Source: an uncultured Syntrophomonadaceae bacterium
GTDB taxonomy: Bacteria > Bacillota > Dethiobacteria > DTU022
DNA length: 64,000 nucleotides
Direction of reading: 5' to 3'
Assembly (NCBI GenBank): GCA_964467475.1
Contig: CAYXQO010000002.1
Location: 57,787 to 121,786, forward strand
Position numbers and translations under genes: made by a program. This document shows, piece by piece, positions 6,414 to 25,301 of this stretch. The notes under the pieces are model-generated. The model saw nothing but the letters and a program-made list of their open reading frames with translations, ran no database searches and had not been told where the DNA came from. Each line of letters opens with the position of its first letter. Position 1 is the first letter of the stretch.

Positions 6414-7270
6414 ATCTAAGTCACAGTTACAAAATAGGGACCCCTTTTGAGCACAAAGTCCTGCATGATGTAAGCTTCTCAATTGCCGACGGTCAATTTG
6501 TAGGGCTAATCGGTCCCACTCGCTCGGGCAAAACCACCCTGGCACAATATTTAAACGCCCTTTATATTCCCCGTAAAGGAAAGGTATTGATCGACGGGGA
6601 AAATACAGCTGACCGGCGGGCAGACCTGGTTACTATCCGCCACCGGGTGGGATATGTTTTTCAAAACCCCGAGTACCAGCTATTTGCTCCCACCGTAGGC
6701 GAAGACATCGCTTTCGGGCCAACTAACCAGAACCTTCCCCGAGAAGAAATCGATAAACTGGTTAAAAATGCGATGGAAATGGTGGGCCTGGATTATGAAA
6801 CTTTTAAAACCCGCGATATTTTTGCTTTAAGCGGCGGCCAAAAAAGGCGTGCCGCTATTGCAGGAGTACTGGCCTGTAGGCCAAAAGTCCTGGTATTAGA
6901 TGATATCACCGCAGGTCTTGATCCCCGGGGACGGGAAGAAATTATGGATGTAGTAAAAAGTTTACATCAGCAGCAAAACATCACCATCCTGTTTATCAGC
7001 AACAGCATGGACGATGTGGCTTTGCTTGCCGAGAGGCTCCTGGTAATGGATAACGGAAAAATTATTATGGACGGGCCCACCAGGGAAGTTTTCGCCCGGA
7101 CCGAGGAATTGCGTGCAATCGGATTGGAATTACCGGAGGTTAGTATTATCGTCGACCGGTTGCGTTCTGCCGGGTTCCAACTGCCTGCCGGCATATTAAC
7201 CGTAGACGAAGCAATCAGTGAAATTGCCGCTTTCCTAAAGGATAAGGAGGCGCGAGAACAGTGGAGCTGA
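6395..7270 (+). CDS. ecfA2: Energy-coupling factor transporter ATPase EcfA2.
   Basis: It has a Walker A motif (GPTRSGKTT), an ABC signature (LSGGQKRR) and a Walker B motif (LVLDD). It overlaps ecfA1. Confidence 0.85.
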   Translation: MSIEVLNLSHSYKIGTPFEHKVLHDVSFSIADGQFVGLIGPTRSGKTTLAQYLNALYIPRKGKVLIDGENTADRRADLVTIRHRVGYVFQNPEYQLFAPTVGEDIAFGPTNQNLPREEIDKLVKNAMEMVGLDYETFKTRDIFALSGGQKRRAAIAGVLACRPKVLVLDDITAGLDPRGREEIMDVVKSLHQQQNITILFISNSMDDVALLAERLLVMDNGKIIMDGPTREVFARTEELRAIGLELPEVSIIVDRLRSAGFQLPAGILTVDEAISEIAAFLKDKEAREQWS

Positions 7271-8088
7271 CCAAGAATATTACCCTCGGCGTTTACCTGC
7301 CCGGAGAAACACGAGTGCACCGCCTCGATCCACGCACCAAAATTATTGGCGCATTTATCTTGATTGTTCTTTTACTGCTGGCCCGTTCATACGCTGCTTA
7401 TGGGGTGGTAACCCTATTTATCGCTTTCCTGGTCTTTATCTCCGGAATTCCCCCCGGCTACGCATTGCGGGGACTCAAGCCAATGCTGCCAGTGCTGCTC
7501 TTAATGTGGATATTCCAGTTATTTCTCCACCAGTCTCCCGATACGGCTGTCCTTTTCCGGTGGTGGATTTTTGAAGCTACCGAAGCCGGCCTTCACATGG
7601 GAAACTTAATCATCCTGCGGGTGCTCTTTCTCTTTACCGTGACCACCCTTTTAACCTTGACCACTTCCGTGGTAAGCCTAACTGACGGCCTGGAAAACCT
7701 GCTCAAGCCCCTGCGCTCCCTCGGACTTCCTTCACACGAACTGGTAATGACCCTGGTCATTGCCCTGCGTTTCGTGTTGATCCTGGCTGAAGAACTCGAA
7801 AAAATCATGAAAGCCCAGATGGCCAGGGGGGTGGCTTTTGACCGGGGCAATTTCATTCAAAAAACGAGGAAGATCTTCCCGGTTTTCCTGCCCCTGTTCA
7901 TCGGGGCTTTCAAACGGGCAGAAGAGCTTATCGTGGCCATGGATGCCCGCAGTTACACAGGGGGCAAAGGACGCACCAAAATGAAAACCCTGCACATGGG
8001 CAGGGTAGACCTGGCGGCCGCGTTAATCATGCTTTTCTTTACCGGGCTGATGATTTATGTAATCGTTACTTATGAACCATTTATCTAA
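7261..8088 (+). CDS. ecfT: ECF transporter transmembrane (T) component EcfT.
   Basis: The 275-aa polytopic protein carries the conserved EcfT ARG motifs (MKAQMARGV ... AMDARS). It overlaps the end of ecfA2. Confidence 0.8.
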   Translation: MELTKNITLGVYLPGETRVHRLDPRTKIIGAFILIVLLLLARSYAAYGVVTLFIAFLVFISGIPPGYALRGLKPMLPVLLLMWIFQLFLHQSPDTAVLFRWWIFEATEAGLHMGNLIILRVLFLFTVTTLLTLTTSVVSLTDGLENLLKPLRSLGLPSHELVMTLVIALRFVLILAEELEKIMKAQMARGVAFDRGNFIQKTRKIFPVFLPLFIGAFKRAEELIVAMDARSYTGGKGRTKMKTLHMGRVDLAAALIMLFFTGLMIYVIVTYEPFI

Positions 8089-9758
8089 CTTATTTCATAA
8101 ACATCTCTCGGCTCAACCCCAAATGAAGTACCTACAGCAATAGCGGCACGGACCTGTTCCCCGGAAGGATCAACCCGCTTTATCCCGCTTATCGCCTCAT
8201 TTAGGGGCACGGAAGAGATTTGATCTCCTTTTAGGCAGACCATCCGGTTGCATCTCTGCTCCATGAATAATTCCACCGCTTTCACTCCGAACCGGGTGGC
8301 CAGGATCCGATCGTACGAGGTCGGACTACCGCCGCGCTGCAGGTGGCCAAGCACAGTGGCCCTGCTTTCCATATCGGTGCGTTTTTCAATCTCCCGGGCT
8401 ACGGTTTCACCAATACCGCCCAATCTCTTTACAGAGCCCTTGGCTTTATAAACCGGCTCACTGCCCTCAGGATAGGCCCCTTCCGCTACTACAATAATAC
8501 TGAATTTTTTACCCCGCCGGTTACGCTCGTTTATTTTTTTCACCACACAGGAATAAGCGAAAGGCATCTCAGGGATCAAAATTATATCGCCACCGCCTGC
8601 CATTCCGGCCTGTAAGGCGATCCATCCGGCATCACGGCCCATCACTTCTACAACCATAACCCGGTGGTGCGATTCGGCCGTGGTGTGTATTTTGTCGATG
8701 GCTTCAGTGGCAGTAGTTACCGCAGAATCAAACCCAAAAGTTAAATCTGTCGCAGGCAGGTCGTTATCGATGGTTTTAGGTATACCGATCACCGGTACTC
8801 CCAGTTCGCTAAAGCGGTGGGCCAAAAGCAAGCTGCCGTCACCGCCAATTACCACCAGGCATTCGATACCCCATTTTCTCAGGTTATCCATGGCATCCGC
8901 GGAACGATCCATGCCAGTATCTTTATAGTCAGAGGAACCACCGGGACGGTAATCAAAAGGATTATCGCGGTTGGAAGTGCCAAGGATGGTCCCGCCCCGG
9001 GTAAGGATCCCGGAAACAGCAAAATCATCTATCAGGTAAGCATCATTTTCAACCAACCCTCTAAAACCGTTATTAAAACCAACCACTTCGCTATTATATT
9101 TATATTGAGCACTTTTAACCACTGCCCGGATTACCGCATTAAGACCGGGGCAATCACCGCCGCCGGTTAAAAGACCTAGCCTTCTTCCTGCCTTATGCGA
9201 ACCGGCTTTAATTGGGCCGGTGTTTCCTTTTAAAAAGGTATCTTGCGCTTGTGCTCCGCTATCTTCTTCTCTATTCGGCATAACACCGCCGCTATTATCT
9301 TTCTCTTCTTTCTCAGGCTCAAAGTCACCGATAGCTTCGCGGGCCAGCTGGTCACAACGCTGGTTAAGCCGGTCTGTACTGTGCCCTTTTACCTTGATCC
9401 ATTCAATTTCATTGATTTCAATCAGTTCCGCAAGCAGTTTCCAGAGATCCTGGTTTTCCACGGGTTGTTTCTTGCTGGAAAGCCAGCCGTTCTTTTGCCA
9501 GCGTTTCAACCAACCCTGGTTAAAGCAGTTAACCAGGTAAGCGCTGTCGCTGTAAAGCCTGACCCTGCTTCCCTGCGGCACCCGGCGCAAAGCTTCCACG
9601 GCTGCCTGCAATTCCATACGCTGATTGGTGGTTTTATCTTCGCGCCCGCTGATTTCTTCCACAGTATCGCCGTGCATAATTACAGCCGCCCAGCCACCGG
9701 GGCCAGGATTGCCGGTACAGGCACCATCGGTATAAATTTCATACTCTGGCTTTCCCAA
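8085..9758 (-). CDS. RNase HI domain fused in-frame to an ATP/PPi-dependent 6-phosphofructokinase domain.
   Basis: The N-terminal 150 aa or so is RNase HI (YTDGACTGNPGPGGWAAV, MELQAA, LYSDS, KGHS), with the catalytic D/E/D/H/D residues present. About 45 aa of E/K/G-rich linker follows, with no stop in frame. Then comes a full PFK-A fold (GLLTGGGDCPGLNAVIRAVV, VIGGDGS, MGRDAGW). Its stop overlaps the ecfT stop on the opposite strand. Confidence 0.7.
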   Translation of the reverse strand: MGKPEYEIYTDGACTGNPGPGGWAAVIMHGDTVEEISGREDKTTNQRMELQAAVEALRRVPQGSRVRLYSDSAYLVNCFNQGWLKRWQKNGWLSSKKQPVENQDLWKLLAELIEINEIEWIKVKGHSTDRLNQRCDQLAREAIGDFEPEKEEKDNSGGVMPNREEDSGAQAQDTFLKGNTGPIKAGSHKAGRRLGLLTGGGDCPGLNAVIRAVVKSAQYKYNSEVVGFNNGFRGLVENDAYLIDDFAVSGILTRGGTILGTSNRDNPFDYRPGGSSDYKDTGMDRSADAMDNLRKWGIECLVVIGGDGSLLLAHRFSELGVPVIGIPKTIDNDLPATDLTFGFDSAVTTATEAIDKIHTTAESHHRVMVVEVMGRDAGWIALQAGMAGGGDIILIPEMPFAYSCVVKKINERNRRGKKFSIIVVAEGAYPEGSEPVYKAKGSVKRLGGIGETVAREIEKRTDMESRATVLGHLQRGGSPTSYDRILATRFGVKAVELFMEQRCNRMVCLKGDQISSVPLNEAISGIKRVDPSGEQVRAAIAVGTSFGVEPRDVYEIS

Positions 9759-9782
9759 CAGCTTTCCTCTCCTGTCAACCGG

Positions 9783-12524
9783 TTATGAAGTAAACCTTTC
9801 CATATCCGAGAGTATTTCTTCCAGTTCCTCTATTTTATCACCGTAGCCGCTCCAGTCGCCTTCCTGCTGCATTTTTATTGCTTCTTCATAAGCATCCCTG
9901 GCCCGCCGGATCAACTCGGCCAGTTCCCCTTCCACGTCGATTTCCACTTCCGGCATGGGATCATCCAAATCAAGATCTTCGGGCAATTCATCATCGGGAA
10001 TTGCCGCAGGCAGCTCCCCTATTTCACCAAACACCTGGATCAGGGCTTCATCAAGGGTATGGCCCATCACTACTCTTTCGTCGTAGCTGACAATAACCCG
10101 GGCCAGTTCCGGCAGTCCCCCGGTATCCGCTTCTAAGAAGATCGGTTCAACGAAAAGCAGGGCATCATTGATCGGCAAAACCAGGAGGTTGCCCCGGATC
10201 ACCCGTGAACCGACCTGGCCCCAGAGGGTGAATTGCTCTGAAATATCGGTATCCTGGTCAATCCGGTTTTCAATCTGTCTTGGGCCGAGGACCAACCTTT
10301 CCCTGGGAAAGAGGAACAGTTCCACTTCGCCATAATTGGGTTGATCACAGCGGGCCACCATCCAGGCAATCATGTTGTTACGTTTATCCGGGGTAAAGGG
10401 CCGGATTAAAACATATTCAGGTTCCTCGTAGCCGGGCATTTCCAGGACTGTATAATATGGCTCCATCGGTTGTTCTTGACCGAAAGCTTTTTCAGTAGGA
10501 ATAGCCCAGAGATCTTCCCTGCTGTAGAACTGGTTCGCATCGGTGATATGGTACAACTGCAGCAATTCTGATTGCATCTCGAAAAGATCCAGGGGATAAC
10601 GGACATTTTCCATCAAACCCTCGGGCATTTCTTCCATTGGAGTAAACAAGTCAGGGAAGATATTACTGTAAGTCTGGATCATCGGATCGTCGGGTTCGGT
10701 CACGTAAAACTCAACATCGCCGTTGTAAGCATCGATGACCACCTTGACTGAATTGCGGATGTAATTTAAGTTTTCGTAGGGCTGCGAATAAGGATAACGA
10801 TCGGTTACGGTATAAGCATCCTGGATCCAAAACAGCCTGCCGTCATTAACCACAACATAGACATCGCGATCGTAACGCAGGAAAGGCGCAATCTTGCGCA
10901 CCCTTTCGTGAATATTGCGGTCGAATATAAGCCTGCTGTCATAGTTCAGTTCATCGGAAATAAGAATGCGGTACTCGCCAAAACGCAGGGCCATCAGCGC
11001 CCGGCGGAAAAATGAATTCAAAGGAATCCCGGCATCGCCATCGTAATAGATAAACTCATTTTCCCCCTCGTCGGTGGCATAGTGAAACTCCGCGGTTTCG
11101 GTGTTGGTAATGATATAATCATCTGTCAGTTCACCAAAATATATCGAAGGGTTGTTCAACTCCAGTTCCCCTTCCGGAGGAATATCCTGTAAAAAGTAAC
11201 GGGGCAAGCCTTCGGGGTTAACTTCATTAACCGGGCTCATAGCCACCCCGTAACCGTGGGTATACTGCAGGTGTATATTTACCCAGGTCTGGGCTTCTTC
11301 AGCCAGCCTGCTTTTATCGAGTTCCCTGGCAGATAACATTACCTGGCGCAATTCGTCGTCTACCTCGTAGCGATCGATATCGACGTCGGTAAAGCGGTAG
11401 TAGGGACGAATAGCCTGAAGCTCGTTAAAGGTGGTTAGCAGGGGGCGGTAATCCCACAGCCGCACATTATTGATTGTCCCCGGGTTATCCTGTAGATCTG
11501 TCCAGCTTAAAGCCCGGGTGGGATCATACTGGCGGGTATTGAACTGGTCGAGCCCGTATGCCTGACGGGTAAACTCAATGTTATGATCCAGGTATTCACG
11601 TTCGTAGCTGAACTCGCTTGGTTCCACCATGTAATTCTGGACAAATGCCGGATAAGCCCAACCACCAAGCAGAGAAACACCGATCAAGACCATGGTTCCA
11701 TATAAAAACAAGCGGTAGCGGCGCAGGAATATATTGGCTAAAAACACCAGGGCGATTACCCCGGCCAGGACCATCAAAACCATTAAAACATTGTAATTGG
11801 CATTAATATCGGTGTAACCGGCGCCATAAACTACACCCCTCTCTGAAAGCAGCAGTTCAAGCTGGCCGAGACGGTAATCCCAGGCTTTCAGACCGAACAC
11901 CATGGCCAAAAGCACAGCCAGGTGACTAATCCCGCGAGATGGGGGAAGGGTCCAGCCCTGTTTCGCCTGGGAAGGAGGGTTCATGAGCAGATAAATAGCC
12001 CCGATAATTACCAGGGTGATCACTACAGTCATCATTAGAAAACTGTAAATAAAACGATAAAACGGCAAACCGAATACGTACTGCGCTACATCGGCACCGA
12101 AGATTGGATCAGAAATATTAAAGGGCACCTGGTTGAAAAAGCGCAGCGCCTCCATCCAGGCATCCCCCACGTATGCAGAAAAAATGTAAGCAAGACCCGC
12201 AGATGCAATTATAAAATAGAGTGTCAGGCGCCTGGGAGTGAAATGACGCATAGCACCGCTGGCCATCAACTTTTCCCGTAAAGCCAGATTGGGAAAACTT
12301 AAAATGTAGCGTTTAGTAAACAAAAGGTTGACAAACAGAAAGGCAAAAATAAATATAAAACCGCCAATCCGCATGCCCCACTGGGTTAAGTACTGGGTCC
12401 AAAAAACCTGTTCGGCGTCCAGGTCGACAAACCACAGTAAATCAAGATAAAAATTCGTCCCGGTTATAAGCAAAGAACCGAGAATAATCAAACCTATAAG
12501 AATAAAAAAGAAACGACCGCGCAA
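9783..12524 (-). CDS. UPF0182 family large membrane protein.
   Basis: The 913-aa protein has seven N-terminal TM helices, a large soluble region and an acidic C-terminus, the typical UPF0182 architecture. Confidence 0.7.
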   Translation of the reverse strand: MRGRFFFILIGLIILGSLLITGTNFYLDLLWFVDLDAEQVFWTQYLTQWGMRIGGFIFIFAFLFVNLLFTKRYILSFPNLALREKLMASGAMRHFTPRRLTLYFIIASAGLAYIFSAYVGDAWMEALRFFNQVPFNISDPIFGADVAQYVFGLPFYRFIYSFLMMTVVITLVIIGAIYLLMNPPSQAKQGWTLPPSRGISHLAVLLAMVFGLKAWDYRLGQLELLLSERGVVYGAGYTDINANYNVLMVLMVLAGVIALVFLANIFLRRYRLFLYGTMVLIGVSLLGGWAYPAFVQNYMVEPSEFSYEREYLDHNIEFTRQAYGLDQFNTRQYDPTRALSWTDLQDNPGTINNVRLWDYRPLLTTFNELQAIRPYYRFTDVDIDRYEVDDELRQVMLSARELDKSRLAEEAQTWVNIHLQYTHGYGVAMSPVNEVNPEGLPRYFLQDIPPEGELELNNPSIYFGELTDDYIITNTETAEFHYATDEGENEFIYYDGDAGIPLNSFFRRALMALRFGEYRILISDELNYDSRLIFDRNIHERVRKIAPFLRYDRDVYVVVNDGRLFWIQDAYTVTDRYPYSQPYENLNYIRNSVKVVIDAYNGDVEFYVTEPDDPMIQTYSNIFPDLFTPMEEMPEGLMENVRYPLDLFEMQSELLQLYHITDANQFYSREDLWAIPTEKAFGQEQPMEPYYTVLEMPGYEEPEYVLIRPFTPDKRNNMIAWMVARCDQPNYGEVELFLFPRERLVLGPRQIENRIDQDTDISEQFTLWGQVGSRVIRGNLLVLPINDALLFVEPIFLEADTGGLPELARVIVSYDERVVMGHTLDEALIQVFGEIGELPAAIPDDELPEDLDLDDPMPEVEIDVEGELAELIRRARDAYEEAIKMQQEGDWSGYGDKIEELEEILSDMERFTS

Positions 12525-12568: not shown

Positions 12569-12629
12569 TAGTTTAATCTTCATATGTATTTTAGACCAGT
12601 GCAGTCTCCCTGTCAAAAAGAAAATTAAG

Positions 12630-13286
12630 TCACTCCATTATTATGTCAACACCGGCACTGGTGCCAATTCTATTTGCCCCGGCACGGATTAATTCTTCGG
12701 CTGCAGCCCTGGTCCGGATGCCTGCAGATGCCTTAACGCCAAGCCTTTTCCCCACAGTTTCCCGCATCAATTTAATGTCGGCCGGGGTGGCTTGACCGGG
12801 CCCGAACCCGGTTGAGTTTTTAACAAAATGGGCCCCGCCTTTTTCTGCCAGGCGGCAGGCCAAAACTTTTTCTTCTTCCGAAAGCAGACCGGTTTCAATA
12901 ATTACCTTCACCGGTTTTTCATTTACTGCTTTTACCACCGCAGCAATATCTTCAACTACGTACTGATCGTTGCCGCTTTTTAAAGCACCGCTATGCATTA
13001 CCATATCAATTTCAGCAGCGCCGCTTTCCACTGCATCAGCAGCCTCATAAGCTTTGACTGCAGTAGTAGCAGTTCCCAGGGGAAAACCTACAACCACGCA
13101 AATTTTTACTGCGCTCCCTTTCAGCTCGCTTAAAGCGGTTTTTGCCCACGACGGATTGATGCAAACTGCGTAAAAAGAATGATCAATCGCTTCCCGGCAG
13201 AATCTGCGGACATCCTGCTCAGTTGATCCCGGCTTAAGCAAAGTATGCTCTATAAAGCCAGCCAGTTTATCCGGCACACTTGCCAC
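12630..13286 (-). CDS. deoC: Deoxyribose-phosphate aldolase.
   Basis: DeoC motifs are present (VCINPSW, VVGFPLG, a Schiff-base lysine context VKASAGIRT). Length is 218 aa. Confidence 0.85.
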   Translation of the reverse strand: MASVPDKLAGFIEHTLLKPGSTEQDVRRFCREAIDHSFYAVCINPSWAKTALSELKGSAVKICVVVGFPLGTATTAVKAYEAADAVESGAAEIDMVMHSGALKSGNDQYVVEDIAAVVKAVNEKPVKVIIETGLLSEEEKVLACRLAEKGGAHFVKNSTGFGPGQATPADIKLMRETVGKRLGVKASAGIRTRAAAEELIRAGANRIGTSAGVDIIME

Positions 13287-13294
13287 CTACTTTC

Positions 13295-14609
13295 CTATTC
13301 CACGCAGCCGAGGATCAAGGGGATTTTTTCATTGGGCTCTTTACTTATTTCATAAGCCTCGTCGATCATAGCGGTAGCTGAAGCCACCGGTTCTTTTTCC
13401 CGGCTGCCTACGGTATAGAGCAAAGCAAGAATATCCCCTTTTTTAACTCGGTCCCCGATTTTCTTTTCCAGGGTAATCCCTACTGCCGGGTTAATTATAG
13501 AATCTTTCCTTTGCCGACCTGCACCGAGGTTCATCGCTGCTCTGCCGACTAATTCAGCTTTGATCCTTCCCACATAACCTTCTTCAGCAGCCGTTACCTG
13601 GATTTTTTCTTCGGCCTGTGGCAGCAGAGATAAGTCGTCAATAATTTTTGGATCGCCACTCTGGTTTACCAACAGTTCCTTGAATTTATTAAGCGCCTCT
13701 CCGTTAGCAAGCAGTTTTTTCAGCAAGATTTCCCCTTCACCGGGCGCACCGGCTTTACCCGCCAGGTAAAGCATCCATCCTCCCAGGTGAAGGCAAAGTT
13801 TCTCTAAATCAGGCGGACCCTCCCCGCGTAGAGCCATAACCGCTTCTTCCACTTCCAGTGAATTGCCTACGGCACGGCCCAGGGGTTGATCCATGCTGGT
13901 AATCACGGCAGCTGTGCGCAAGTTTGATTTTTCACCGATACTTTTCATCATCCGGGCCAGCTCAAAAGCTCTTTCTTTTTCTTTAACAAATGCTCCGTCG
14001 CCAACCTTGACATCCAGCACCAGGGCATTAGCCCCGGCAGCCATTTTTTTGCTCATTATGCTGGCAGCAATCAGGGGCATGCTATCCACGGTAGCGGTCA
14101 CATCGCGGAGAGCATACAATTTTTTGTCAGCCGGAACCAAATCCGGGGTCTGGGCTGCTATGGCCACTCCAATCTTTCTCACCGCCGCTTTTATCTCCGG
14201 CACCGCGAGTTCAGTGCGAAAACCGGGAATGGCTCTTAGTTTATCCAGGGTGCCCCCGGTATGGCCAAGGCCGTGCCCGGACAACTTTGCTACCGGGACT
14301 CCAGCCGCAGCCACCAGCGGCGCCAGCACCAGGGTGGTGGTATCGCCAACCCCGCCGGTGCTGTGTTTATCTACCTTGATACCCGGAAGATCGCTTAAAT
14401 CGATACGGTTGCCGGAATCGACCATTGCTCGAGCAAGAAAGGTAGTTTCGTCATCATCCATGCCTCGAAAATATATTGCCATCGCCATGGCGGCAGCCTG
14501 GTAATCAGGAATGATTCCCTTAGCATAACCATTGATAAAATATTCGATCTCCGTCCCGGTAAGCGGTAAGTCATTACGCTTTTTTAAGATTAAGTCATAC
14601 GCCCTGATC
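13295..14609 (-). CDS. pdp: Pyrimidine-nucleoside (thymidine) phosphorylase.
   Basis: It contains KHSTGGVGD and SGHGLGHTGGTLDKL. The ORF-track Met is internal; the true N-terminus (IRAYDLILKKR...) extends to about 14609, where a GAGGGAGG RBS sits upstream. The exact start codon is uncertain. Confidence 0.8.
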
Positions 14610-16111: not shown

Positions 16112-18598
16112 TCAGCGAGCAACTATATTAACCAGGCGTCCTGGTACAGCAATCGTTTTAACAACTTCCTTTCCGTCAAGCAGTTCGCTAATCCTCTCAT
16201 TATTTCTGGCTTCTTCGATTAACTGTTCCTCTGAACAATCGGCCGGCACATTAATCCTGCCGCGTACTTTTCCGTTAATCTGGACTACCACTTCTACCTG
16301 GTCCACCTGGAGCATCTCCGAATCGTACTGCGGCCAGTGCTGCCTGTGCACGCTATCCTCATGTCCAAGCAGGCTCCATGACTCTTCCGCTATGTGCGGC
16401 GCAAAGGGAGCGAGCAAAATAACCATTTTTTCCAGGGCATCCCTTAAAACTGCATGATTGCTCTGCCCGTTTTCATTAGCTTGTCGGTAAGCATATGTGG
16501 CATTTACCAGCTCCATAATCGCACTGATTGCCGTATTAAAGTTGAAGCGCTCTTCTATGTCATGAGTCACCTTCTTAATTGCTCCATGAACACTACGCTG
16601 CAGCTCGGAATCACTATCTCTGTAATCGTCACGACCACCCCCGGAAATCACCTCTTCCCGGCACTCGTCAATCAAACGCCAGGCTCGGCGCAAGAAACGG
16701 TAACAACCCTCCACGCCCTGATCATTCCAATCAAGGTCCTTTTCCGGCGGTGAAGCAAATAGAATAAACAACCGGCCTGTATCGGCGCCGTACTTTGCTA
16801 CGATCTCATCGGGGGTAATCACGTTGCCCTTGGATTTGGACATCTTTGCCCCGTCTTTATAGACCATTCCCTGGGCCAGCAGGCGGGTGAAGGGTTCATG
16901 ACATTTAAGCATACCGGCATCATATAATACTTTGGTGACAAAGCGAGCATAAAGCAGGTGGAGTACTGCATGTTCAATACCGCCGATATACTGATCGACA
17001 GGCATCCAGTAATCAACCGCCTCTTTGTCGAAAGGAACTGTCTCAGAGTTCGGGCTGGTATAGCGCAGGAAATACCAGGACGAACATATAAACGTATCCA
17101 TCGTATCTGTTTCCCGCTTAGCCGGCTCGCCGCATAAGTGACAGGTGGTTTTAACAAAACTTTCGTAATGGGACAGGCTGGGCACACGGTTGCCGGATAA
17201 TTCAACGTCCATAGGCAATTCCACCGGTAACTCTTCTTCGGGCACCGGAATTGCGCCACACTGATCACAGTATTTTATAGGTATCGGCGCCCCCCAGTAA
17301 CGCTGACGAGAGATTAACCAGTCCTTTAGCTTGTAGGTGACCTTGAAAGTGCCCAGGTCTTGCTCTTCAAGGTATTCGGTAACTTTCCTAAAGCCCTCCT
17401 TCTCGCTCAAACCATCAAAAGTTCCTGAGTTGATCATCTTCCCCGGACCATCATAGGCTTCTGCCATGCTATCACCGGACAGGTTCTCCCCTTCCGGCTG
17501 AATCACTACCCTGACTTGCAGATTGTATTTGCGGGCAAATTCAAAGTCTCTCTGGTCATGAGCCGGCACACCCATTACCGCACCGGTTCCGTAAGCCATA
17601 AGCACATAATTGCCTACCAGGATCGGCACTTCTTCCCCATTGATCGGGTTAACCGCGTGACGACCGGTAAAAAGTCCGATCTTAGGAGTTTCTTCAGAAG
17701 TACGGTCAATTTCGCTCTCCTGCCGGACATTAGAAACAAACTCCATTACCTCTTCTTCCCGGGTCGTTCCTTCCACCAGTGGTTTAACCAGGGGGTGCTC
17801 CGGAGCTAAAACCATGTAGGTTACCCCAAAAAGCGTATCAGGCCTGGTGGTAAAAGTACGGATTTCTTCTTCGGGGAATTCCTTAACCTTAAAAGAAATC
17901 TCCGCCCCTTCACTTCTGCCGATCCAGTTCTGCTGCATCAATTTAACCCGCTCGGGCCATTCTTCCAGATCATTTAGGTCATCTAGCAACCGTTCGGCAT
18001 AATCGGTTGTTTTCAAAAACCACTGCTCCAGTTCCCTGGTCTCCACTACAGCGGAACAGCGCCAGCACAGGCCCTTTTCCACCTGTTCGTTTGCCAGGAC
18101 GGTTTGGCAGGTAGCACACCAGTTAACGTTTGATTTTTCTTTGTAGGCCAGATTCCTTTTGTACATTAGCAAGAACAACCACTGGGACCAGCGGTAATAA
18201 TCCGGCGAAGAAGTATTTACTTCCCGTTGCCAGTCATAGCTAACACCCAGCCTGTTTTGCTGTTCTTTCATATGCTCTATATTTTGCGCCGTCCACTCGG
18301 CCGGGTTGACGTTATTTTCAATAGCGGCATTTTCAGCAGGGAGTCCGAAAGCATCCCAGCCCATTGGGTGCATTACGTTGTAATCACGCATACGCAGGAA
18401 ACGAGCCAGGACATCCCCGATAGAATATACCCGCATGTGACCCATGTGCAGCTTTCCTGAAGGATAGGGGAACATCTCAAGTACATAATATTTAGTCTTG
18501 GAATGATCAACCTGGGAACGAAACGAGTCCTGTTCCTTCCAGAGTTTCTGCCATTTTTCTTCGATTTGGATCGGGTCGTAGTTTGTCACTTGCATCAT
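16112..18598 (-). CDS. leuS: Leucyl-tRNA synthetase.
   Basis: It carries the class I motifs HMGHMRVY and KMSKSKGN and a CP1 editing domain. Length is 828 aa. Confidence 0.95.
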   Translation of the reverse strand: MMQVTNYDPIQIEEKWQKLWKEQDSFRSQVDHSKTKYYVLEMFPYPSGKLHMGHMRVYSIGDVLARFLRMRDYNVMHPMGWDAFGLPAENAAIENNVNPAEWTAQNIEHMKEQQNRLGVSYDWQREVNTSSPDYYRWSQWLFLLMYKRNLAYKEKSNVNWCATCQTVLANEQVEKGLCWRCSAVVETRELEQWFLKTTDYAERLLDDLNDLEEWPERVKLMQQNWIGRSEGAEISFKVKEFPEEEIRTFTTRPDTLFGVTYMVLAPEHPLVKPLVEGTTREEEVMEFVSNVRQESEIDRTSEETPKIGLFTGRHAVNPINGEEVPILVGNYVLMAYGTGAVMGVPAHDQRDFEFARKYNLQVRVVIQPEGENLSGDSMAEAYDGPGKMINSGTFDGLSEKEGFRKVTEYLEEQDLGTFKVTYKLKDWLISRQRYWGAPIPIKYCDQCGAIPVPEEELPVELPMDVELSGNRVPSLSHYESFVKTTCHLCGEPAKRETDTMDTFICSSWYFLRYTSPNSETVPFDKEAVDYWMPVDQYIGGIEHAVLHLLYARFVTKVLYDAGMLKCHEPFTRLLAQGMVYKDGAKMSKSKGNVITPDEIVAKYGADTGRLFILFASPPEKDLDWNDQGVEGCYRFLRRAWRLIDECREEVISGGGRDDYRDSDSELQRSVHGAIKKVTHDIEERFNFNTAISAIMELVNATYAYRQANENGQSNHAVLRDALEKMVILLAPFAPHIAEESWSLLGHEDSVHRQHWPQYDSEMLQVDQVEVVVQINGKVRGRINVPADCSEEQLIEEARNNERISELLDGKEVVKTIAVPGRLVNIVAR

Positions 18599-18944
18599 CC
18601 CCTTTTAGAATATAAAAAATCCGCCCTCTTTCTCAAGGGACGGATTATTCCCGCGGTACCACCCTTATTGGTAAACATCTGGTGGAGCTGGCGGGAGTCG
18701 AACCCGCGACCTCTTCCATGCCAAGGAAGCGCGCTCCCACTGCGCCACAGCCCCATGTTGTATTACCCGCTTACTGGCCGTTACCGCCGGCTTACGGCAA
18801 CGATTACTTTTTCTTTCACCGCTGCTTCTCCGGGACGAGTTCAACATTCATGCCTGCCGGTTTTCAGCTAACCCGGCTCTCTTGGAAGACATTCCTGCCT
18901 ACTGCTTCCCATCATCGAATTAACTTTTTGGTACCTCGAGTACA
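18599..18944 (-). promoter_or_regulatory. T-box leader (Leu specifier) of leuS, interrupted by a tRNA-Ala gene.
   Basis: The canonical T-box motif AAUAAGGGUGGUACCGCGGG is at 18650-18669. The antiterminator (AAGGG / UGGUACC bulge / GCGG ... CCGU / CCCUU) overlaps a terminator (AUCCGUCCCU-UGAGAAAG-AGGGCGGAU + U6, 18613-18645) placed 18 nt before the RBS. A Stem I-like region at 18830-18930 has AGAGAG and a CUC codon at 18837-18839. A sigma-A promoter lies upstream. Confidence 0.75.
18680..18754 (-). tRNA. tRNA-Ala (anticodon GGC), CCA encoded.
   Basis: The 75-nt sequence folds into a perfect cloverleaf: acceptor GGGGCUG/CAGCUCC with the G3:U70 alanine identity pair, and discriminator A73-CCA. 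The D stem is GCGC/GCGC with G18G19; the anticodon stem is CUUCC/GGAAG with loop UUGGCAU; the T stem is GCGGG/CCCGC with loop UUCGACU. U8, U33, A37, T54, U55 and C56 are all present. Confidence 0.85.
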
Positions 18945-24189: not shown

Positions 24190-24367
24190 AAATCAATTGA
24201 ATATTATTCACCTTCGATCCATTTATCCTAAGGCGTGCCATCAGGCATGACTAAGGTAAATGGACGATAGGGTACGGTTGGAAACGGCTGTGCCTCCCGT
24301 TGCGGAAAGAAGGTCATTGTTGACTAATTGACGATCGCATTTCCCAGCGGGAAAATGCGATTTTTTT
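24190..24367 (+). ncRNA. Structured 5' leader with an intrinsic terminator; candidate Moco/tungsten-cofactor-type riboswitch.
   Basis: The untranslated leader between the promoter and tupA is about 265 nt with several nested helices (UGCC-AUCA-GGCA; ACGG ... CCGU enclosing GGC-UGU-GCC; CCUCCC). A perfect terminator CGCAUUUCCC-AGC-GGGAAAAUGCG + U7 sits at 24336-24367, 88 nt before the start codon. The family assignment is not verified. Confidence 0.35.
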
Positions 24368-24455: not shown

Positions 24456-25301
24456 ATGTACGCTCACAATAAATTGAGCCATTTAACCATGTTTACCCTG
24501 GTTCTCATGTTAAGCACTGCTCTAATAATAGGAGGTTGTGAAGAAGAACCTATCGATGATACTATCACCCTGGCCACCACCACGAGTACCTACGATTCCG
24601 GGCTGCTTGATTTCCTCAACCCTAAATTTAAAGAGGAAACAGGAATCGAGGTAGAAGTAATATCTCAGGGCACCGGTGCCGCCCTTGAAACCGGAAAACG
24701 GGGCGATGCCGATGTCTTGCTGGTGCACGACAGGGATTCCGAACTGGAACTGGTGGAAGAAGGCTATTTTGTCGATCGCCACGATGTAATGTATAATGAT
24801 TTTATCTTTGTCGGCCCGGAAGATGATCCGGCCGGAGTTGGCGATGTTGACGAAGCGTTCGAAAGCTTAAACCTGATTGCCGAAAGCGAAAGCACCTTCG
24901 TATCCCGCGGTGACGATTCCGGTACCCACCGTATGGAAATGAGTTTGTGGGAAGATGCCGGCATCGATCCGGAAGGAGAAAATTGGTACCGCTCTATCGG
25001 CCAGGGCATGGGCGATACCCTTAACATGGCCAATGAAGAACTGGGTTATGCCATGACTGACCGGGGCACTTATATCTTCATGCGGGACAATTTAGACCTT
25101 GAAATCGTTCTTGAAGGGGATCCGGTTCTGTTTAACCAGTACGGCGTCATGGCTGTCAATCCAGAAGAACATGACCACGTTAAATATGAGTACGCACTGA
25201 TGTATATTGATTTCTTAATGTCTGATGAAGGGCAGGAATTGATTAATTCCTACACGGTAGACGATGAAGTCCTCTTTTTCCCCGGTTACGGGTTAGAATA
25301 A
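24456..25301 (+). CDS. tupA: Tungstate ABC transporter substrate-binding lipoprotein TupA.
   Basis: It has a signal peptide with lipobox (IIGGC) and the TupA/WtpA-type sequence (TLATTTSTYDSGLLDFL ... SRGDDSGTH). Confidence 0.75.
   Translation: MYAHNKLSHLTMFTLVLMLSTALIIGGCEEEPIDDTITLATTTSTYDSGLLDFLNPKFKEETGIEVEVISQGTGAALETGKRGDADVLLVHDRDSELELVEEGYFVDRHDVMYNDFIFVGPEDDPAGVGDVDEAFESLNLIAESESTFVSRGDDSGTHRMEMSLWEDAGIDPEGENWYRSIGQGMGDTLNMANEELGYAMTDRGTYIFMRDNLDLEIVLEGDPVLFNQYGVMAVNPEEHDHVKYEYALMYIDFLMSDEGQELINSYTVDDEVLFFPGYGLE

Follow-up and report, generated by a model that had tools for sequence, protein, structure and literature searches.

A single reading frame joins ribonuclease HI to a PFK-A family 6-phosphofructokinase in one lineage of Dethiobacteria

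The 64,000-nt stretch of DNA analysed here (referred to as the window) derives from an uncultured Syntrophomonadaceae bacterium of the Dethiobacteria (Bacillota; assembly GCA_964467475.1, contig CAYXQO010000002.1). It contains, on the minus strand, one uninterrupted open reading frame (ORF) of 557 aa, with a TTG start and no internal stops, in which an N-terminal ribonuclease HI (RNase HI) is joined to a C-terminal 6-phosphofructokinase (PFK) of the PFK-A family. This architecture is conserved in a whole clade of relatives, both domains are under purifying selection, no internal start codon is conserved, and the fusion arose once, in one lineage of the Dethiobacteria, from genes that were adjacent to each other. 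From the sequence, we conclude that the gene is predicted to specify one protein of approximately 61 kDa with two working enzymes. It seems quite probable that this is a true bifunctional polypeptide of single origin, in which RNase HI and PFK-A would act independently and which would have been fixed by a neutral ratchet.

A first-pass annotation of the window had described a single in-frame RNase HI-PFK ORF without a stop codon or frame change, comprising a complete RNase HI with all five catalytic positions, an E/K/G-rich linker of about 45 aa and a full PFK-A family phosphofructokinase, with neither domain degraded. That description is borne out by the ORF list, the sequence and the domain searches, the latter having found both PF00075 and PF00365 in one chain. 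For the N-terminal domain, the Pfam family RNase_H (PF00075) was matched with an E value of 5.5e–42 (143.7 bits, against a threshold of 25.8), and the NCBIfam ribonuclease HI equivalog PRK00203 (NF001236) gave 179 bits, above its curated cut-off of 160. Residues D11, E49, D71, H126 and D136 align with the catalytic residues D10, E48, D70, H124 and D134 of the Escherichia coli enzyme, and all five are invariant in the full-length members of the fused family (67 of 67). E. coli-type RNase HI typically possesses a basic protrusion that serves as a hybrid-binding handle; in the sequence alignment, the corresponding segment of the window protein, WLKRWQKNGWLSSKKQPVENQDLW, matches its E. coli counterpart without gaps. 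The closest solved structure to this domain is PDB 3H08 (E value 4e–48), and E. coli-type RNase HI structures were matched at approximately 1e–32 to 1e–35.

The evidence for the C-terminal domain is similar in kind. The Pfam family PFK (PF00365) was matched at residues 193–497 (E value 7.8e–109, 363.7 bits, against a threshold of 30.9), the NCBIfam model PFK_mixed (TIGR02483) scored 448.1 bits against a curated cut-off of 430.55, and Foldseek matched the domain to bacterial PFK structures with an E value of 3e–30. The catalytic and fructose-6-phosphate residues GGDG, TIDND, T125, D127, D129, R162, R171, E222, R243, H249 and R252 are all present in the window protein and do not vary among 68 fused and 47 unfused relatives. 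Most of the effector-site arginines of the E. coli type are missing from the domain. With regard to the phosphoryl donor, the ATP-specific equivalog models TIGR02482 and PRK14071 scored under their cut-offs for the window protein, in which residues 104 and 124 are Gly and Lys, respectively. A donor rule for these positions assigns ATP to Gly104/Gly124 and pyrophosphate (PPi) to Asp104/Lys124; G104 is thus ATP-like, while K124 is typical of PPi-dependent and mixed-group enzymes. Taken on that rule, for which a search of the literature under Gly104/Lys124 found no source, the window PFK would be an ATP-using enzyme of the Streptomyces type, and ATP is probably its phosphoryl donor.

Codon-level comparisons were made between members of the fused family, with synonymous divergence (dS) near saturation in most pairs, including that of the window and locus L100. 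The ratio of nonsynonymous to synonymous substitution (dN/dS) for the RNase HI domain was 0.137 for loci L102 and L105 and 0.083 for the window and L100; other pairs were not calculable or gave 0.080. The corresponding values for the PFK domain were 0.061 and 0.057, with other pairs not calculable or at 0.043. For the linker, dN/dS was 0.45 in the L102/L105 pair and from about 0.8 to 2.7 in other pairs, and was not calculable for the window and L100, where dS was saturated. Mean pairwise identities across the family follow the same order, at 81% for PFK, 68% for RNase HI and 8% for the linker. The idea of a degraded or pseudo-enzyme RNase H domain was considered and is rejected in view of its invariant catalytic residues and a dN/dS between 0.08 and 0.14. 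The retention of all catalytic residues and the strong purifying selection suggest that each domain most likely still does its ordinary job: in RNA:DNA hybrids, the RNase HI domain would cut the RNA strand, and the PFK domain would phosphorylate fructose-6-phosphate.

The linker varies in length from 13 to 58 aa, and its reading frame is never broken in the fused family. Its composition across the family is rich in G, K, S, E, A and N, and in the window it is rich in E, K and G. An AlphaFold2 model of the monomer, computed from an alignment of 81 sequences, contains two confident domains (mean predicted local distance difference test score (pLDDT) 81.9, predicted template-modelling score 0.60), with a pLDDT of approximately 88–98 over the RNase HI domain and below 50 over residues 150–188. 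Searches of the PDB by Foldseek and by sequence matched RNase HI (3H08) and bacterial PFKs separately, and found no solved chain that spans both halves.

The first-pass annotation had proposed a check for orthologous fusions in related genomes. In a homologue search covering 5.8 billion proteins, clustered at 90% identity, approximately 70 further clusters were found to share the PF00075+PF00365 architecture; these proteins are 66–78% identical and 483–565 aa long, and they come from independent NCBI metagenome-assembled genome (MAG), JGI, ENA and Logan assemblies. Two of the fused relatives were obtained from hypersaline soda-lake metagenomes (LKMJ) (PMC4766312). The exact window protein is present in NCBI and in two different ENA assemblies, and a JGI copy differs solely in the annotated first residue. 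An error of sequencing or assembly, or a recent inactivating read-through that joined two genes, might be suspected, given that rnhA and pfkA are separate genes in some relatives. The occurrence of the identical protein in separate assemblies, however, excludes a sequencing error specific to the window; moreover, some 70 diverged clusters stay in frame through linkers of varied length, purifying selection acts on RNase HI and PFK alike, and all fused sequences fall into a single clade with good support. An assembly artefact is thus ruled out, and the chance that an explanation of this general kind applies is judged to be negligible.

Outside this family, the architecture was not encountered. 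A library clustered at 50% identity retained one representative of the whole fused family, and no independent RNase H-PFK fusion was seen among its best 150 matches. A scan of genome contigs with peptide patterns exact to the query recovered stand-alone RNase HI genes of unrelated phyla only and no fusion, and in a scan of metagenome contigs with an alignment of the RNase H domain, in which the generic motif GNPGPGGW dominated, none of the 80 loci among the matches listed carried the fusion. Within the window itself, no other RNase H or PFK gene was found. Two PFK-A proteins from the 50%-identity library, P0171 (563 aa) and P0180 (532 aa), both from high-GC organisms, have N-terminal extensions of approximately 185 aa. 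They were examined as possible decayed RNase H fusions and rejected, the extensions having neither a Pfam match nor similarity to RNase H; from these extensions, the PFK N-terminus seems tolerant of added domains. The fused proteins are entered in databases as 'ribonuclease HI [Bacillota bacterium]' or '6-phosphofructokinase 1', each name covering one half. The RNase H-PFK protein thus has many database copies under single-domain names, and a literature search found no paper describing it, in agreement with the first-pass annotation, which had been aware of none.

The source of the fusion is evident from its closest unfused relatives. The nearest unfused PFKs are approximately 70% identical to the window PFK domain and are encoded in the same neighbourhood, directly downstream of a separate rnhA. 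In GCA_900198705.1 (locus L013), the order is UPF0182, rnhA (150 aa), a 186-bp spacer and pfkA (361 aa); in GCA_964441025.1 (locus L097), it is pyrimidine-nucleoside phosphorylase (PYNP), deoxyribose-phosphate aldolase (DeoC), rnhA (151 aa), a 48-bp spacer, pfkA (359 aa), a second PFK, fructose-bisphosphate aldolase and a convergent energy-coupling factor (ECF) transporter. Every reading frame of the 186-bp spacer is interrupted by stops, and pfkA has its own Shine-Dalgarno sequence and start codon at the end of both spacers. In the window and most of the fused loci retrieved, the order is PYNP-DeoC-UPF0182-[RNase H-PFK]-convergent ECF transporter; L099 and L101 deviate on one flank and L105 is without an upstream flank, and the order from UPF0182 to the fusion gene is kept in every fused locus for which the upstream flank was retrieved. 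Since separate rnhA and pfkA genes occupy the same position in the sister clade, the fusion arose once, from neighbouring genes.

A neighbour-joining tree of PFK domains is consistent with this conclusion. The unfused clade is sister to the fused clade with a bootstrap value of 94/100, and the fused clade itself is recovered at 98/100 if P0074 is allowed inside it, or at 81/100 under the strict definition. P0074, a stand-alone PFK near the fused clade, was considered as evidence for fission and was rejected: because of its unrelated gene context and long branch, it looks like a separate copy and not like a reversion at the fusion locus. The taxonomy of the fused clade was inferred from named homologues of LeuS, which are those of 'Dethiobacteria bacterium' MAGs. 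LeuS from contigs matched by length to those with fused genes is 75–78% identical to that of the window, as compared with 67–72% for contigs matched in the same way to unfused genes, and these identities fit vertical inheritance. The first-pass annotation had named relatives with two separate genes as evidence that would tell against a genuine fusion. Such relatives do exist, in a sister clade in which intervening stops separate the genes; the approximately 70 clusters of the window's own clade are nevertheless fused, for which reason the split genes mark the source of the fusion and do not refute it.

The simplest history would involve a single loss of the rnhA stop codon, recruitment of the spacer as a linker, and vertical inheritance thereafter. 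In the mechanism proposed here, the stop codon would have been lost in a Dethiobacteria ancestor and the short spacer between rnhA and pfkA read through into pfkA, so that the linker probably derives from the former intergenic spacer. The result would be a chain with a type-1 RNase H at the N-terminus, a PFK-A at the C-terminus and, between them, a flexible linker that is not conserved, with each domain keeping its ordinary function, namely cleavage of hybrid RNA and phosphorylation of fructose-6-phosphate, respectively. As PFK-A enzymes are tetramers, an assembled particle would be expected to carry four RNase HI heads. Once pfkA no longer had a ribosome-binding site and start codon of its own, the fusion would have become hard to reverse. 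PFK would be made solely by translation through rnhA and the linker, such that a stop codon or frameshift in that region would abolish it, and this dependence would explain why the linker drifts in sequence and length without loss of frame.

Three considerations weigh against this interpretation and should be noted. Because dS is near saturation in most pairs, only the comparison of L102 with L105 gives a reliable dN/dS. Members of the unfused sister clade likewise keep rnhA next to pfkA, and this arrangement could point to a functional or regulatory connection that predates the fusion, as opposed to pure accident. Finally, the structural model is that of a monomer, and the RNase HI and PFK domains may make transient contact.

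The first-pass annotation had suggested that the locus might have a dual output, with free PFK made from an internal Met near position 9269 preceded by a weak, ribosome-binding-site-like GGCGGTG. An in-frame Met does exist, at residue 160 (ATG at 9281–9279, about 12 nt from the position suggested), and a weak promoter-like match (9/12) is situated just upstream of it, at 9322–9294. In addition, many members of the family have M or V right before RRLGLL, where the PFK domain begins and where the ancestral pfkA would have started, and the long linker, if as disordered as its pLDDT suggests, would be open to proteases, so that cleavage there could be a second route to free PFK. The ATG at Met160, however, has no Shine-Dalgarno match, and the 11 promoter-like sites found are at the level of chance (8.6 ± 3.1 expected by shuffling). 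In nine fused loci, an AGGAGG-type match of 5–7 nt precedes the N-terminal start in seven, the window among them, with a 4-nt match in one and none in the other, whereas of the in-frame start codons in the linkers only one has a Shine-Dalgarno match, of 4 nt. In two of the nine loci (L015 and L103), the linker contains no in-frame ATG, GTG or TTG at all, and a Met is present in the linker of only 14 of 67 members. As for the residue before RRLGLL, it is G in the window, and the M or V of other members looks like a relic of the ancestral pfkA start. Since an internal start is neither conserved nor provided with a ribosome-binding site, dual output is unsupported; as judged from these sequences, separate production of PFK is not a conserved property, and it would be surprising were free PFK to accompany the fusion protein.

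It was also considered whether the two activities are functionally coupled and not joined by accident, with RNase HI displayed on the scaffold of a PFK tetramer or PFK brought to RNA:DNA hybrids. In variants of this proposal, the turnover of hybrids or RNA could be tuned to the glycolytic state, or RNase HI could be recruited to a degradosome-like network. Retention of the fusion across the whole clade would be accounted for, as would the adjacency of the unfused genes in the sister clade; four RNase HI domains per tetramer would be expected to provide avidity for long hybrids; and in Bacillus subtilis PFK is counted among the components or interaction partners of the degradosome built around RNase Y (PMC5289998, PMC8152036, PMC8565344). 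On the other hand, the linker is conserved neither in sequence nor in length, and no set of residues suggests an interface. The RNase HI domains of unfused relatives are as similar to the fused ones (63–66%) as the fused ones are among themselves, and the only analogue that has been studied, RNase HI-CobC, shows no coupling in vivo. Furthermore, among the matches listed in a sample of 89 other RNase HI loci from diverse bacteria, with flanks of up to 6 kb per side, none had a PFK gene nearby, and the association of rnhA with PFK is for that reason specific to this lineage. By analogy with RNase HI-CobC, and in view of the variable linker, two independent activities would be favoured, and coupling is considered unlikely, although less so than the other alternatives discussed. 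A still bolder proposal, which we rate slightly lower again, is that the fusion is a 'Rosetta stone' for a partnership between PFK and RNA-processing nucleases in the Bacillota, with the PFK tetramer serving as a metabolite-sensing scaffold for four RNase HI heads. If this were true, the clearance of R-loops, primers or RNA:DNA hybrids would be tuned to the glycolytic or energy state of the cell, or would be carried out in a degradosome-like assembly. The link between glycolytic flux and removal of R-loops, which the first-pass annotation had put forward as speculation, is just that.

The coordinates of the fusion gene and of associated features are collected in Table 1.

Table 1. Features of the RNase HI-PFK locus, in window coordinates
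Feature	Position	Strand	Detail	Basis
Fusion ORF	8085..9758	-	TTG start 9758-9756, stop codon 8087-8085	ORF list, Pfam/NCBIfam domains, identical protein in independent assemblies
RNase HI domain, aa 5-143	9330..9746	-		PF00075, PRK00203, catalytic residues, basic protrusion
Disordered linker, aa 146-190	9189..9323	-		pLDDT, variability, spacer of unfused relatives
PFK-A family 6-phosphofructokinase domain, aa 193-547	8118..9182	-	'PFK_mixed' group	PF00365, TIGR02483, invariant residues
Shine-Dalgarno AGGAG	9769..9773	-	7 nt upstream of TTG start	Sequence and Shine-Dalgarno scan
Internal in-frame ATG (Met160)	9279..9281	-	Judged not conserved	No Shine-Dalgarno match upstream
UPF0182 membrane-protein gene	9783..12524	-	Upstream of fusion gene	ORF list, PF03699 annotation, conserved order
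Sigma-70 promoter-like site	12588..12616	-	TTGACA-17-TAAAAT, upstream of UPF0182	Consensus scan (11/12), pattern match only

The UPF0182 gene stops 24 nt before the start of the fusion gene, with which it is probably co-transcribed, and the sigma-70 promoter-like site is a candidate promoter for an operon of the two. Further upstream, on the same strand, are the PYNP and DeoC genes (12630–14488), whose order is kept in fused and unfused relatives. Because the catabolism of deoxynucleosides feeds glyceraldehyde-3-phosphate into glycolysis, the neighbourhood mixes nucleic-acid and sugar-phosphate metabolism. On the other side, the convergent ecfT/CbiQ gene (plus strand, 7261–8088) overlaps the fusion gene by 4 bp at the stop codons (8085–8088), with no terminator between them; the same overlap is found in L102 and L105, and a gap of 24–110 bp in other relatives.

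Two further features were noted next to pfkA in the unfused loci. In L013 (GCA_900198705.1, 7341–7634), and also in L012, a 97-aa fragment duplicating the C-terminal end of pfkA lies approximately 250 bp downstream of the intact gene and is accompanied by a repeat of the downstream non-coding sequence, i.e. a partial tandem duplication. In L097 (GCA_964441025.1, 7334–9431), pfkA is followed directly by the gene for the second PFK-family protein (421 aa) and that for a class II fructose-bisphosphate aldolase, both of which are absent from the corresponding position in all fused loci.

Two RNA elements elsewhere in the window were also observed. A full-length T-box leader (18633–18924, minus strand; 109.5 bits, gathering score 93) contains a complete tRNA-Ala(GGC) gene (18680–18754, minus strand), which sits as an 86-nt insertion at the tip of 'stem III', the stem immediately 5′ of the antiterminator. 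The tRNA has the G3:U70 identity pair, and its CCA is encoded. The leader has a CUC (Leu) specifier, is preceded by a perfect TTGACA-17-TATAAT promoter (approximately 18977–18949) and followed by an intrinsic terminator, and is situated upstream of leuS (16112–18598). Given this nesting, the leader would double as a tRNA precursor, and processing by RNases P and Z would cut the riboswitch apart; no account of a tRNA gene nested in a T-box leader was found in a literature search. The second element is a molybdenum/tungsten cofactor (Moco) riboswitch aptamer (24200–24328, plus strand; 66.8 bits, gathering score 36), upstream of an ORF at 24456–25301.

The window protein probably represents a new domain partner in the known set of lineage-restricted, bifunctional RNase HI fusions, and a new mechanism is unlikely. 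It is, in any case, a clean natural example of two unrelated neighbouring housekeeping genes that have merged, with the split and fused states preserved in sister lineages. The former spacer would now be a freely drifting, frame-locked linker, and the family is a useful test case for distinguishing a neutral ratchet from adaptation in the persistence of fusions. There is also a practical consequence: because annotation pipelines name only one half of the protein, metabolic reconstructions from Dethiobacteria MAGs can miss either PFK or RNase HI. Were the activities coupled, the fusion would allow direct experiments on why glycolytic enzymes associate with the RNA-processing machinery of bacteria, a question of long standing.

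Among individual enzymes, the RNase HI half shares the DEDD + His site, the basic protrusion and the whole fold with stand-alone RNase HI proteins (E. coli RnhA; Chlorobaculum tepidum, PDB 3H08), but differs from them in being covalently joined to a C-terminal enzyme of approximately 365 aa and, presumably, displayed on a tetramer. The PFK half resembles the Group III 'mixed' PFK-A enzymes (TIGR02483) of Streptomyces, Amycolatopsis and Mycobacterium in its GGDG, TIDND and fructose-6-phosphate residues and in Gly104 and Lys124; unlike them, it is preceded by an RNase HI domain in the same chain and has lost its own translation start. A physical association of a PFK with a ribonuclease is known in another member of the Bacillota, in the RNase Y network of B. 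subtilis (PMC5289998). That association is non-covalent and involves RNases Y and J1, which act in RNA decay, whereas in the window the connection is covalent and the nuclease is one for RNA:DNA hybrids; no evidence connects the two.

The closest precedent for RNase HI-PFK is the actinobacterial RNase HI/CobC family, represented by Rv2228c of Mycobacterium tuberculosis and MSMEG_4305 (RnhC) of Mycobacterium smegmatis; SCO2299 of Streptomyces is also of this type. Like the window protein, these consist of a complete N-terminal RNase HI, a highly variable linker and a C-terminal metabolic enzyme, of a central or a cofactor pathway. The partner domain is different, being a histidine phosphatase (CobC) in the Actinomycetales and PFK-A in the Dethiobacteria, and against the model for the bifunctional RNase H/acid phosphatase (NF005567) the window protein scored 18.7 bits, with a cut-off of 326 and with the RNase H part alone matching. 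It is on this account an analogue of RNase HI-CobC and not a member of that family. The parallel extends to evolutionary behaviour, in that the RNase HI/CobC proteins are likewise confined to one bacterial lineage and have domains that evolve at different rates (PMC7466739). In work on MSMEG_4305, whose linker is highly variable, no functional connection between the two domains was found in vivo, and its authors considered genetic drift the most probable cause of fixation (PMC7466739).

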